Shown piece by piece: positions 18,451 to 39,990 of a DNA stretch of 64,000 nucleotides. The DNA lies in assembly GCF_964213995.1 (NCBI RefSeq), contig NW_027590190.1, forward strand, positions 248,001-312,000, given 5' to 3'. Source of the stretch: Mustelus asterias. Lineage: Eukaryota. Each line of letters opens with the position of its first letter. Position 1 is the first letter of the stretch. A program made the position numbers and the translations under genes. The notes beneath the pieces were generated by a model, which saw only the letters and a program-made list of their open reading frames with translations, was not told the origin of the DNA and searched no databases.

Positions 18451-18513
18451 CTTGGTCATATGGACATATGTCTGTCTGGCAGCCTACCTGGAGATTTCCA
18501 GCTCTCTGTGTCC

Positions 18514-18581
18514 AGGGCAGGAAGCAGTGAGCATGGATCTGTCAATCAGCCTCAATCAGCACTTTCAGGAGAATCGGGAGG
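18514..18581 (+). other. Candidate mini-exon of ZNF gene 4 (encodes MDLSISLNQHFQENRE)
   Basis: TGTCCAG acceptor, GG|GTGAAT donor and a downstream TTTTACAG acceptor at 18720; repeated at 23777-23845 and 22288-22325 (minus). Confidence 0.5.
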
Positions 18582-22325: not shown

Positions 22326-22605
22326 GTGGAGATGCCGGCGTTGGACTGGGGTAAACACAGTAAGAAGTTTAACAACACCAGGTTAAAGTCCAACAGGTTT
22401 ATTTGGTAGCAAAAGCCACACAAGCTTTTGGAGCCTTAAGCCCCTTCTTCAGGTGAGTCGGAATTCTGTTCACAAACAGGGCATATAAAGACACAAACTC
22501 AATGAATAATGGTTGGAATGCGAATACTTACAGCTAATCAAGTCTTTAAGACACAAACAATGTGAGTGGAGAGAGCATCAAGACAGGCTAAAGAGATGTG
22601 TATTG
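22326..22605 (-). mobile_element. Penelope 3' terminal fragment
   Basis: Near-identical to 36590-36875. Confidence 0.85.
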
Positions 22606-22675
22606 GACACTTTCAGCTCTCTGTGTCCTGGACACAGAGAGCTGGAAATCTCCATGCAGGCGGCCAGACAGATAT

Positions 22676-23051
22676 TTTTTTAAATACTTTTCCAATTCAA
22701 TCAAATCAAATCCAATTCAGAGTCTCAACAAGTTGAGACATCCCAGATCCAGGCCGACAAGACAGGGCAAGCGACCAAACCACCCTGTCCTGGGCCTGAT
22801 CCACATGAGCCAAGCTGACCGGAGAAGGGGGAGGTTCCTCCTCCAAGACTTGGGCTCATCTGCATCTTAGCCAAAAGGCCGAGACGCCGCTTTTAAAAAT
22901 TGCTTCATATGAAACACATGAAGCTTCAGTGCAACCCAATGACCCCAACCAAGCGCAGGCGATCCATACTACACTTGATCTTAGCCAAAAGGCCGAGAAG
23001 CGATAGCCTGTAAACTTACAGATACTACACTTGATCTTAGCCAAAAGGCCG
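22676..23051 (-). mobile_element. U2 snRNA-fragment chimeric retroposon (SINE-like) with an 18-bp TSD
   Basis: U2 5' fragments at about 23018-23053, 22966-23004 and 22864-22884; short A-tail; AGGCGGCCAGACAGATAT at 22658-22675 and 23052-23069. Confidence 0.8.
22966..23004 (-). ncRNA. U2 snRNA nt 1-39 fragment (not a full gene)
   Basis: Minus strand reads ATCGCTTCTCGGCCTTTTGGCTAAGATCAAGTGTAGTAT. Confidence 0.9.
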
Positions 23052-23099
23052 AGGCGGCCAGACAGATATATGTCTATCTGACTGGAGTAACAATGTGTG

Positions 23100-23540
23100 G
23101 AATGTACAGACTGGGGGGAACAATGGGTGGGGGCGGGGCTCCCGGGTCCGCGCGCCTGGGTGGGGGCGGGGCTCCCGGGTCCGCGCGCCTGAACCCGGAG
23201 ACGTCACCACGGAGCAGAGTGATTGCTATTGGCTGATTCAGGCAGGGCTCCATTGTGCCGTCACAATGACTCAGAGGGGCGTTCCCAGCACACAGTGTCC
23301 CATTGGCAGCAATACCACTGGTTACAGAAGCAAAACACTGCGGATTGGACACCAGCTCAGCGCGGCTGGCGGTCAAAGCCCCGCCCACTCCTACTTGGGC
23401 TCGGCTTCCGCCCCCTCATTGTCCACATGCGGGAGATTAACCAATGGCAACGCGTGGAGGACCGGATGGGCGCTGGTCCTCCAGCCAATCAGAGTCCGGG
23501 CCCTGTGTCAATGGCTGCGCGGAGCTTGGTCCATTGTCTG
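23100..23540. promoter_or_regulatory. CpG island promoter containing an exact 33-bp tandem duplication (23125-23190)
   Basis: Multiple GC boxes and CCAAT boxes; GT donor-like GTGAGT near 23540; homologous to 1-100. Confidence 0.7.
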
Positions 23541-24342
23541 TGAGTAAAGTGTTTGAATTCTGCGCTCCAGAGGACTGTGGAGCCTCAGTCATCAAATATT
23601 TTCAAGAGAGAGATTGGTAACTTTTGAGGCATTGAGTAACCTGGGGGATAGTTTGGGAAATATTGGCCCTGTGGAAATGATGCTGCGGTAGATCAGCCAA
23701 TTCTCAATCAATGGTTGAAGCAGGTCGATGGGCTGAATGGCCAACTGCAGCTCCTATTTCTTACGATTTCTGTGCTGGACAGGAAGCAGTGAGCATGGAT
23801 CTGTCAATCAGCCTCAATCAGCACCTTCAGGAGAATTGGGAGGGTGAATATTAGATACAGCAGAGTGAGAATGGAGGGAGAGTGTGTGGGATGGAGATTT
23901 ACAGCTTTTGGGGAATGAGAGGGGAAAGAATGTTCCATAGAAACTAGAATTGTCTGTTCTGAATTTCTATTTCTATTTCTAACTCATTTTACAGGATATT
24001 GAGCGAGGAATTACAGGCTGAAATCTCAAATGTCACGTCTAGATCTGGCAGTCATATTCCTTGGGAGCGAAATATCATCGGCCTTTGAATCTGGAAGGAG
24101 AAATGTTTGTCCAGTCTGTCGATTTGAAAAAAAATTCAAACATCAGTGTGACTGGAACAGCACCAACACACTGTCACACTCGAGTGAGAGTATTCCAATG
24201 AACTGACTAAAGAGCTTTAACCAGTTACACAGCCTGAATAAATATCACACCATTCACAGTGAGAAGAGACCGTACTGGTGTTGTGCCTAGACGAGGCATC
24301 AACTGATTGTCCACCCAAGAGAGTGGCAAGGACACCTGCACC

Positions 24343-25395
24343 ATGGAGAAACCATGGAAATGTGTGGATTGTGGGAAGAGATACAGAGCCCCATCTCAGC
24401 TGGACGCTCATCGGCGCAGTCACACTGGGGAGAGGCCGTTCATCTGCTCTCAGTGTGGGAAGGGATTCACTCTGTCATCCAGCCTGCAGACACACCAGCG
24501 AGTTCACACTGGGGAGAGGCCGTTCACCTGCTCTCAGTGTGGGAACAAATTCACTCAGTTATCCAATCTGCAGGCACACCAGCGAGTTCACACTGGGGAG
24601 AGGCCATTCACCTGCTCTCAGTGTGGGAAGGGATTCACTCAGTTGTCCAGCCTGCGGACGCACCAGCGAGTTCACACTGGGGAGAGGCCATTCATCTGCT
24701 CTCAGTGTGGGGAGGGATTCACTCGGTTATCGAACATGTGGAGACACCAGCGAGTTCACACTGGGGAGAGGCCATTCACCTGCTCTCAGTGTGGGAAGGG
24801 ATTCAGTCAGTTTTCCAGCCTGCAGACACACCAGCGGGTTCATACTGGGGAGAGGCCGTTCACCTGCTCTCAGTGTGGGAAGGGATTCAGAGCTTCATCC
24901 AGCCTGCGGACACACCAGCGAGTTCACACTGGGGAGAGGCCGTTCACCTGCTCTCTGTGTGGGAAGGGATTCACTCGGTCCTCCCACCTGTGGAGACACC
25001 AGCGAGTTCACACCGGGGGGAGGCCCTTCACCTGCTCTCAGTGTGGGGAGGGATTCAGAGCTTCATCCAGCCTGCGGACACACCAGCGAGTTCACACTGG
25101 GGAGAGACCGTTCACCTGCTCGCAGTGTGGAAAGGGATTCACTCGGTCATCCAGCCTGCGGACACACCAGCGGGTTCACACTGGGGAGAGACCGTTCACC
25201 TGCTCTCAGTGTGGGAAGGCATTCATAACTTCATCCAGCCTGCGGACACACCAGCGAGTTCACGCTGGGGAGAGACCATTCACCTGCTCTCTGTGTGGGA
25301 AGGCATTCACTCAGTCATCCCACCTGCGGAGGCACCAGCAAGTTCACACTGGGGAGTGGCCTTTCACCTACTCTGTGTGGGAAGCGGTTCAGTGA
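24343..25395 (+). CDS. C2H2 zinc-finger protein, 12 highly homogeneous fingers (gene 5); 3 more fingers lie out of frame to 25603
   Basis: ACCATGG start (MEKPWKC); 2-nt deletion near 25372. Confidence 0.85.
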
Positions 25396-36585: not shown

Positions 36586-37135
36586 AGATGTGGAGATGCC
36601 GGCGTTGGACTGGGGTAAACACAGTAAGAAGTTTAACAACACCAGGTTAAAGTCCAACAGGTTTATTTGGTAGCAAAAGCCACACAAGCTTTCGAAGCTC
36701 TAAGCCCCTTCTTCAGGTGAGTGGGAATTCTGTTCACAAACAGAGTTTATAAAGACACAGACTCAATTTACATGAATAATGGTTGGAATGCGAATACTTA
36801 CAACTAATCAAGTCTTTAAGAAACAAAACAATGGGAGTGGAGAGAGCATCAAGACAGGCTAAAAAGATGTGTATTGTCTCCAGACAAGACAGCCAGTGAA
36901 ACTCTGCAGGTCCACGCAACTGTGGGCGTTACAAATAGTGTGACATGAACCCAATATCCCGGTTGAGGCCGTTCGCGTGTGTGCGGAACTTGGCTATCAG
37001 TTTCTGCTCAGCGACTCTGCGCTGTCGTCTGTCGCGAAGGCCGCCTTGGAGAACGCTTACCCGAATATCAGAGGCCGAATGCCTGTGACCGCTGAAGTGC
37101 TCCCCAACAGGAAGAGAACAGTCTTGCCTCGACAA
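36586..37135 (-). mobile_element. Penelope 3' fragment (end of GIY-YIG plus pLTR)
   Basis: ORF 36929..37135 matches the C-terminus of 38167..39609. Confidence 0.9.
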
Positions 37136-38140: not shown

Positions 38141-38173
38141 CTGGGTGATAACTGGGTGATAGCTGGGTGATAA

Positions 38174-39990
38174 CGACGGACTTCCTACAGAAACTCGGCA
38201 CACATGGAGCAGTTGAGCCAGGAGCGCTCCTCGTCACAATGGATGTCTCAGCACTCTACACCAGCATCCCCCATGACGATGGCATTGCTGCAACGGCCTC
38301 AGTGCTCAGCGCCAACAACTGCCAGTTTCCAGATGCAATTTTACATCTCATCCGCTTCATCCTGGACCACAATATCTTCACCTTCAACAACCAGTTCTTC
38401 ATCCAGACACACGGAACAGCCATGGGGACCAAATTTGCACCTCAATATGCCAACATCTTCATGCACAGGTTCGAACAAGACTTCTTCACCGCACGGGACC
38501 TTCAACCGGTGCTATACACTAGATACATCGATGACATTTTCTTCCTTTGGACTCATGGTGAACAATCACTGAAACAACTCTATGATGACATCAACAAGTT
38601 CCATCCCACCATCAGGCTCACCATAGACTACTCTCCGGAATCGGTTGCATTCTTGGACACGCGCATCTCCATTAAGGACGGTCACCTCAGCACCTCACTG
38701 TACCGCAAGCCCACGGATAACCTCACGATGCTCCACTTCTCCAGCTTCCACCCTAAACACGTTAAAGAAGCCATCCCCTACGGACAAGCCCTCCGTATAC
38801 ACAGGATCTGCTCGGATGAGGAGGATCGCAACAGACACCTCCAGACGCTGAAAGATGCCCTCATAAGAACAGGATATGGCGCTAGACTCATTGATCAACA
38901 GTTCCAACGCGCCACAGCGAAAAACCGCACCGACCTCCTCAGAAGACAAACACGGGACACAGTGGACAGAGTACCCTTCGTTGTCCAGTACTTCCCCGGA
39001 GCGGAGAAGCTACGGCATCTCCTCCGGAGCCTTCAACATGTCATTGATGAAGACGAACATCTCGCCAAGGCCATCCCCACACCCCCACTTCTTGCCTTCA
39101 AACAACCGCACAACCTCAAACAGACCATTGTCCGCAGCAAACTACCCAGCCTTCAGGAGAACAGTGACCAAGACACCACACAACCCTGCCACAGCAACCT
39201 CTGCAAGACGTGCCGGATCATCGACACAGATGCCATCATCTCACGTGAGAACACCATCCACCAGGTACACGGTACATACTCTTGCAACTCGGCCAACGTT
39301 GTCTACCTGATACGCTGCAAGAAAGGATGTCCCGAGGCATGGTACATTGGGGAAACTATGCAGACGCTGCGACAACGGATGAATGAACACCGCTCGACAA
39401 TCACCAGGCAAGACTGTTCTCTTCCTGTTGGGGAGCACTTCAGCGGTCACGGGCATTCGGCCTCTGATATTCGGGTAAGCGTTCTCCAAGGCGGCCTTCG
39501 CGACACACGACAGCGCAGAGTCGCGGAGCAGAAACTGATAGCCAGGTTCCGCACACACAAGGACGGCCTCAACCGGGATATTGGGTTTATGTCACACTAT
39601 TTCACATAAATATTTCTGCTTTTTTCCTCCTGAGTCTTTATCATGCGATCCTAGAATCAGAATTTATGTCACACTATTTGTAACTCCCACAGTTGCGTGG
39701 ACCTGCAGAGTTTCACTGGCTGTCTTGTCTGGAGACAATACACATCTTTTTAGCCTGTCTTGATGCTCTCTCCACTCCCATTGTTTTGTTTCTTAAAGAC
39801 TGGATTAGTTGTAAGTATTCGCATTCCAACCATTATTCATGTAAATTGAGTCTGTGTCTTATAAGTTCTGTTTGTGAACAGAATTCCCACTCACCTGAAG
39901 AAGGGGCTCAGAGCCTCGAAAGCTTGTGTGGCTTTTGCTACCAAATAAACCTGTTGGACTTTAACCTGGTGTTGTTAAACTTCTTACTGT
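38174..39990 (+). mobile_element. 5'-truncated Penelope-like element (Neptune-like) with an open RT + GIY-YIG frame (38167..39609)
   Basis: MDVSALYTSIP, GTAMG and RYIDDIF RT motifs; Cys linker CHSNLCKTC; NVVYLIRC...WYIGET...RMNEH; pLTR with AATAAA. Confidence 0.95.

Follow-up and report, generated by a model that had tools for sequence, protein, structure and literature searches.

A U2 snRNA-headed retroposon family in Mustelus asterias with probable sources in tandem U2 genes and a Keno-type LINE as candidate partner

The window analysed here, a stretch of 64,000 nucleotides (C158:248001-312000), contains clustered C2H2 zinc-finger genes along with LINE fragments and, on its minus strand, a short insertion in which pieces of U2 snRNA follow one another. 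The locus raises the question of whether such an insertion is a single chimeric accident or a member of a mobile family and, in the latter case, how a family of this kind would be transcribed and copied. The insertion proved to be one copy of a short retroposon largely assembled from U2 snRNA pieces, and the identical 412 bases are also found on a second contig, C118.

The copy is flanked by an exact 18-bp target-site duplication (TSD; 5' copy 23052-23069, 3' copy 22658-22675), which is present once at a paralogous site that lacks the insertion and precedes an exon of a C2H2 zinc-finger gene (18455-18519, plus strand; identified by alignment to the element flanks, with 90% over 52 nt on the left and 87% over 31 nt on the right). 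A preliminary description of the sequence had claimed both the duplication and the empty site, and both were borne out. Read along the minus strand, the last 2 nt of the 5' TSD copy overlap U2 nt 8-9 and lead into an extension made of U2 nt 8-43 (23018-23053, identical to the U2 of this genome) and a 13-nt piece (23005-23017) identical to positions -13 to -1 of a 448-bp tandem U2 unit at C21:28.05-28.08 Mb. These are followed by the family head, U2 nt 1-39 with the branch-point recognition sequence (22966-23004; 39/39 identity), a fold-back arm that is the predicted partner of head nt 11-36 (22933-22958; 22 pairs, many of them G-U), a short hairpin (helix 2) with an A-U5 stretch that is Sm-site-like without matching the consensus (22902-22924), and an internal U2 nt 4-27, or stem-loop I, recognised by comparison with U2 (helix 3; 22864-22887, with nt 7-27 at 22884-22864). 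Two long hairpins with subfamily-specific loops (helices 4-8; 22745-22860), a 3' module (22682-22744) comprising a hairpin at 22722-22739 and a TTGA-rich stretch, and a short A-tract read from the sequence (22675-22681) complete the copy. In most copies (103/120) the octamer ATGCAAAT comes after the internal stem-loop I; in the window copy it is altered by an A-to-G change. Rfam matched U2 in the window copy with E=3.2e-06 and 0.0048.

The order of the U2 fragments, the 13-nt piece, the A-tract and three named hairpins were thus all present as first described, and the interpretation changes in other respects. The 13 nt taken for a spacer come from immediately upstream of a U2 gene in a tandem array. 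The family unit is indeed U2-headed and starts at 23004 rather than 23053, the first U2 piece (nt 8-43) being locus-specific and outside it; similar extra-U2 arrangements occur at loci L227 (U2 6-48) and L062 (U2 12-52).

The family unit measures about 330 nt from its start at U2 nt 1 to a short terminal A-tract and has locus-specific TSDs. A 24-nt motif from its 3' part has at least 4,883 exact matches in the 3.68-Gb genome, a lower bound on copy number, with none for a control motif, and a DNA search with the element returned 45 matches at 87-100% together with 3005 first-look candidates. Copies of the body with distinct TSDs had been named as the mark of a SINE family, which is supported, and a one-off chimeric retrocopy with a single-copy body is ruled out by the same counts. 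Among 97 distinct copies, taken from the first 100 matches on contig C1, the 5' end lies at U2 nt 1-5 in 45, at nt 6-15 in 27, at nt 16-39 in 6 and further in in 19; head sequence is present in 78 copies, and 19 are truncated past nt 39. No shared foreign 5' flank was found in this sample, whose flanks appeared mutually unrelated by eye. TSDs of at least 8 nt were seen in 37 of the 97 (about four of them spurious tail-to-tail matches in tandems), 23 copies stand in tandem with another, often with one TSD repeated between them, and tails are short, with a median longest A-run of 7. Head-body junctions and loop variants define several subfamilies, in which junction types recur and are linked to body variants; the mean pairwise distance is 9.5% and the median nearest-neighbour distance 3.2%. 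Words from the body also occur in sequencing runs of six organism codes, at shares of 0.44-0.80, although one of these may be the source species; none of the runs listed is of RNA. At loci L013, L107, L142 and L178 copies have an inverted 5' part or form head-to-head pairs, as twin priming would give.

No tRNA was found in the element, nor any tRNA, 5S or 7SL match in Rfam; an HDV-like ribozyme match (E=7.6) is at chance level, and comparison of the body with U1 loci and U2 spacers gave nothing significant. Derivation of the body from another RNA family was rejected, as Rfam gave only sub-threshold matches (SNORD94 antisense, E=0.007, 20.9 of 60 bits). The T4/T5 runs in the element argue against Pol III transcription, an argument also made for SINEU elements (PMC4494074).

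The approximately 80 nt behind the head and the 3' body had at first been regarded as unrelated sequence, a view contradicted by pairing with the head and by homology to a second family. This sister U2-like family, found through a copy at C24:43078821-43078990 (L120/L234) with further loci L235-L253, is about 230 nt long, and 40 copies scored of 1409 first-look candidates differ by 12.8% pairwise. It retains U2 1-33, has a hairpin in place of the branch-point region, and continues with sequence resembling stem IIb, the Sm site and stem III (score 71 vs a shuffle maximum of 60). The 3' 120 nt of the longer family are homologous to it (score 91 vs a shuffle maximum of 60); in the window copy the second long hairpin is homologous to the sister family and the 3' module to its U2 stem IIb region, and direct alignment of that module to U2 nt 56-120 gave a score of 38, which 17/2000 shuffles reach. 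Because of this homology the 3' end of the element is taken to be U2-derived and not LINE-derived, and the sister family is likely older and either ancestor or sister of the element's 3' half. TSDs of at least 9 nt were found in 3/19 sister copies, most being ambiguous. The first 80-nt module was also tried as diverged U2 nt 56-125 and dropped (1760/2000 shuffles as good). For the fold-back arm, pairing alone and not an inverted U2 copy is claimed, since the identity score is insignificant (97/2000 shuffles).

The 325-nt core is predicted to fold strongly (z = -6.2, with 0/100 shuffles equally stable; z = -7.9 in another fold test), and element nt 47-72 are predicted to pair with head nt 11-36 and so to mask the branch-point sequence. 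Across 40 copies, 97.8% of cells are paired in the fold-back helix, and the overall share of 98.2% compares with 28-42% on sliding. Within the fold-back helix 15 of 22 pairs vary one-sidedly and none two-sidedly. Covariation is weak, with two-sided change in 2/82 pairs lying within shuffles (416/500) and the score at 13/500. As changes are mostly one-sided, selection on the RNA structure is suggested by these predicted folds rather than shown.

The element also occurs inside U2 genes themselves. Variant U2 genes, about 89% identical to the C24 type, form the 448-bp tandem unit on C21 (L073-L077), and a second array on C24 consists of 1.83-kb and 8-kb units. An intact element at C21:28064205-28064531 stands directly behind the upstream flank of the C21 unit with the host's U2 1-39 serving as head. 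Another at C24:43060550, with an internal deletion, stands directly behind the C24 upstream flank, again with the host's U2 1-39 as head, and an element at C24:43063890 lies within a TSD of U2 38-52 and brings its own head. As assembled, the two arrays hold three copies, one of them damaged. Exact junctions from the element tail to U2 nt 38 number six, and the 13-mer array flank is carried by eight genome copies, two of which are the window locus on C158 and C118. In addition, whole array segments have been retrocopied: L229 spans 1.66 kb with three element copies, spacer and the U2 3' half within an 18-nt TSD, further segments lie at L226 (10-nt TSD) and L112 (13-nt TSD), and L228 has the make-up of L229 and no clear TSD. 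These segments indicate that array-embedded copies were transcribed and reinserted, and that the arrays formerly held more element copies than the assembly shows. A TGT-N-AAAGA-like motif is found at -54/-52 of both U2 units and at -51 of U1; this motif near -53 may resemble the vertebrate PSE, and both U2 units have a putative 3'-box-like stretch. Neither U2 unit has the octamer in its upstream region; U1 genes have it at -196/-206.

Several other features of the arrays were observed. The C21 array contains inverted blocks, and a flanking TTGGA-type satellite loosely resembles the 3' stretch of the element. At C24:44.81-44.94 Mb (L080) a unit of 8,035 bp is repeated about 15 times and comprises an intact U2, U2 fragments, a full-length Keno-type LINE and U2 38-191, the LINE having been amplified with the array. 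In the 1.83-kb array (C24:43042158-43053408), four U2 variants of 207 nt have internal repeats of nt ~19-37 in place of nt 38-49, beside the Keno site.

Alternatively, the dispersed copies could be the sources, driven by the internal octamer or by chance flanking promoters, with the array copies mere passengers. The distribution of the octamer, frequent within copies and at U1 genes while missing upstream of the U2 units, would fit this unlikely explanation, as would the few array copies: junction and loop variants are many compared with three array copies, among which the subfamily of the window copy has no match. It would leave unexplained why 5' ends cluster at U2 +1 without a common foreign flank, why U2-array flank is the sole 5' extension that copies were found to share, and why array segments bearing the element were retrocopied; moreover, snRNA genes have no reported internal promoter (PMC4494074). 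Sources within the U2 arrays are thus preferred.

As to the enzyme, the arrays contain a 5.3-kb LINE with a CCHC ORF1 and an ORF2 of 1144 aa (APE endonuclease, RT and zf-RVT), the RT being 46% identical to the Danio 'transposon TX1 149 kDa protein'. In C21 all five of five copies have U2 1-33/35 at the 5' end and U2 38+ after the tail, and the C24 copies likewise sit at U2 37|38, the same 3' junction that the element uses in both arrays. This is the target of Keno (Kojima and Fujiwara 2004, as cited in PMC4640811 and PMC6136364), and PMC4640811 reports Keno and Utopia as its only users and assigns an APE endonuclease to Keno and not to Utopia. Utopia was excluded as the array LINE by this difference, its endonuclease being restriction-like in the same text. 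By its sequence features the array LINE is likely a Keno-type Tx1 LINE. Of four array copies checked, one has an unbroken ORF2 and is itself 5'-truncated. A second, diverged (79%) Keno-like 3' end lies before a U2 gene at C24:41743700-41744870 (L059/L079), which implies more than one LINE subfamily.

This LINE does not appear strictly U2-specific, as about 22 of 95 exact matches to its 3' motif lie within the arrays and about 73 outside, and U2 follows none of 30 dispersed copies. Their TSDs (5-18 nt) cover the same range as those of the element. Nine of the 30 adjoin an element (two may be one duplicated locus), where about 3e-4 would be expected by chance for each, and the order LINE-TSD-element-TSD was found at L186, L187, L199, L206 and L208, in one case with three elements in a row; the stacking and junction comparison covered the Keno-type LINE alone among the Tx1/L1 families. 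A tie between a non-autonomous snRNA-headed element and a U2-targeting LINE, as initially proposed, is therefore supported by the common U2 37|38 junction and the common TSDs, and insertion now takes place mostly outside U2 genes, as also proposed (6 tail-to-U2 junctions vs at least 4,883 copies). A LINE with the 3' end of the element, for which a search had been suggested, is not supported, similarity to the Keno-type LINE being insignificant beyond the U2 head. A shared 3' tail was rejected, merely a short AAAGTAT before the tail being in common, and so was an origin of the element as a LINE deletion derivative, for which the U2 pieces alone match (best other match E=0.21).

The missing common tail would be expected if a different A-tail-recognising LINE, L1 or another Tx1, copied the element and Keno merely shared its targets, which we consider improbable. 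Dispersed target sites are unlike U2 (4.47/16 matches to U2 39-54 vs 4.51 when shuffled), the element outnumbers the LINE about 50 to 1 by exact motifs, and only 1 of 90 element loci in the sample lies within ~500 nt of LINE sequence. These observations are countered by the identical junction, reported in the source mentioned for Keno and Utopia alone, and by TSDs held in common and equal in length range.

The cycle we favour and regard as probable, drawn from these sequence comparisons, is that of a SINEU-type retroposon with its sources in tandem U2 genes, transcribed from the U2 promoter and mobilised by the enzyme of the Keno-type Tx1 LINE. It goes beyond what is observed directly, namely the structure, copy number and TSDs of the family, the element and LINE at the same junction in two arrays, the retrocopied array segments and the TSDs in common with the LINE. 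The LINE enzyme would occasionally insert the element at U2 nt 37|38, and a 5' join by homology, possible because the element carries U2 nt 1-39, would give the arrangement promoter, U2 1-39, body, A-tract and U2 38-191, the head restoring the 5' end of the host gene. Pol II would initiate at U2 +1, so that daughters begin at U2 nt 1 without a promoter and are mostly dead ends. Reverse transcription may prime at the genomic A-tract inside the transcript, which would yield short tails and sometimes carry U2 38+ along, and read-through RNAs could export whole promoter-bearing units. LINE specificity would be relaxed, with insertions often stacked at one site, and more than 99% of copies would therefore land outside the U2 target. 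Borrowing a U2-gene promoter and a LINE enzyme would explain how promoter-less elements are copied. Folding of the U2 head into a long hairpin might prevent the RNA from taking part in splicing and turn it into a substrate for ADAR, and evolution may have led stepwise from an altered U2 gene to the sister family and on to the element. The full proposal, in which a promoter-less SINE cycles through host U2 arrays while the LINE reseeds masters, the fold-back arm masks the branch-point sequence and ADAR edits become heritable, may equally turn out right or wrong.

The suggestion of an ADAR substrate comes from the window copy, whose private changes relative to its seven nearest neighbours are all A-to-G on the sense strand (11/11, against a background share of 0.15), at 22954, 22945, 22932, 22885, 22860, 22820, 22819, 22802, 22755, 22743 and 22742; a twelfth difference (vs L006) at 22937 is a family polymorphism. 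Clusters of 15 and 16 such changes occur in L083 and L161, the latter a composite whose count is less safe, and T-to-C changes reach at most 3 per copy. In the five richest copies A-to-G rates by 5' neighbour are.35 for T,.22 for A,.11 for C and.10 for G. ADAR prefers 5' neighbours in the order T > A > C > G. Across an unbiased set of 83 single copies the counts show no family-wide excess (79 A>G, 81 G>A, 62 T>C; 13/96 sample records having been dropped as short or composite), and one of these copies is hyper-edited. The cluster very probably goes back to ADAR, acting on the RNA before it was reverse-transcribed; its changes would then be RNA-editing scars and would point indirectly to a stage at which the RNA was double-stranded and nuclear. 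An origin in assembly error, DNA mutation or mistakes of the reverse transcriptase would be compatible with the lack of a family-wide strand bias and with several sites lying in loops or helix ends of the predicted fold, and is nevertheless quite unlikely given eleven changes of one class, the low T>C maximum, the clusters in two further copies, the ADAR-like neighbours and bases identical on two contigs. In L083 the A-to-G changes make the A-U5 stretch match what we take to be the Sm-site consensus. In the literature searched, no paper on ADAR-edited genomic retrocopies was found.

A strong fold and a retained stem-loop I, with relatives in the runs of six organism codes, could also point to a domesticated host gene for a U2-derived regulatory RNA, of which all copies would be retropseudogenes. 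This is very improbable in view of the many subfamilies and their 9.5% mean distance; a single conserved locus ending in a terminator of its own was not seen, and the array copies disrupt U2 genes.

For the window copy itself, two rounds are likely. In the first, a read-through RNA with 13 or more nt of array flank would have entered a U2 gene, and in the second the transcript of that gene (U2 1-43, flank and element), A-to-I edited, would have been inserted at the present site. For the 5' extension alone, template switching, which has been argued for SINEU-2 extensions (PMC4494074), has about the same probability as these two rounds. That every copy arose independently by a template switch from a headless body onto U2 snRNA, as differing head-body junctions between groups and the additional U2 pieces in the window copy and at L062 and L227 might suggest, is hardly credible and already refuted for the family, where junction types recur with linked body variants, 78/97 copies have the head and the body pairs with it.

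Local consequences of the insertion appear small. It had been described as landing just upstream of a splice acceptor; an AG at 22629-22628, lying 30 nt beyond the TSD and about 48 nt beyond the tail, is predicted to be an acceptor by comparison with the paralog sequence, although the importance attached to it is not supported. Both branch-point recognition sequences noted earlier exist, one alone belonging to the family unit, where it is base-paired in the fold; having the same sense as the predicted pre-mRNA, it is not a branch site. The exon downstream is interrupted by a repeat of about 280 bp (22326-22605, 93% to 36590-36876), no zinc-finger ORF lies downstream of the element on the minus strand, and an effect on splicing is not indicated. 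Beside this repeat a palindromic junction occupies 22604-22654 (window 22326-22654). On the other side of the element, the GC-rich stretch 23100-23560 contains a 33-bp tandem as well as CCAAT and GC boxes and probably serves the zinc-finger gene at 24307-25395 as a (bidirectional) promoter. A 485-aa open frame at 38152-39609 may encode a Penelope-type RT with a GIY-YIG end.

With a U2 head, a length below 500 nt, no coding capacity, an A-tail, many copies, TSDs and 5' truncation, the element belongs by its features to the known SINEU class, the crocodilian families being compared by description. SINEU has been described from crocodilians only, with Mariner as target and transcription as an open question (Kojima 2015, PMC4494074); PMC5786205 calls the transcription mechanism not demonstrated. 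SINEU-1 and SINEU-3 likewise have a U2-derived head, fewer than 500 nt and an A-tail, with no tail of LINE origin found; in them, too, oligo-T runs speak against Pol III, one TSD is sandwiched between tandem copies and snRNA pieces were added repeatedly at the 5' end. Their partner is of the Tx1 clade (Tx1-Mar clusters with Keno, and some Tx1-Mar carry U1/U2 heads; PMC4494074), as is the candidate partner here, and the sister family consists mostly of altered U2, much as SINEU-3 does. The present element differs in its host lineage, in a candidate partner that targets U2 genes themselves, in source-like copies within U2 arrays, in younger copies (by the 3.2% median) and in a head that is folded back. 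The LINE found here fits these descriptions of Keno; the element shares its junction, yet has no coding sequence and is no internally deleted copy of it, and Utopia has the identical 3' junction with another endonuclease. Transcription of a promoter-less element with a targeted multicopy RNA gene recalls R2 in rRNA genes, as cited in PMC4494074, whereas here a Pol II snRNA gene would be involved, the 5' end of the target is kept as head and a ribozyme was not found. U2/U6-L1 chimeras also join an snRNA 5' piece to a TSD-flanked retrocopy and may explain the window's extension; as cited in that paper they are one-off products, unlike this family of thousands.

No snRNA-headed SINE outside crocodilians was found in the literature searched, which covered few subscription papers and no Repbase Reports, and to this literature both the lineage and the U2-array source model are new, though a curated Repbase or Dfam entry may exist. 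In the element, A-to-I edits would be preserved naturally as genomic DNA, and as a young SINE it supplies a marker common to several related species. As candidate master loci, promoters and an enzyme can be identified here, SINEU transcription becomes testable, and the proposed cycle, if true, would answer how snRNA-headed SINEs are transcribed and would mean an independent SINEU origin outside crocodilians.
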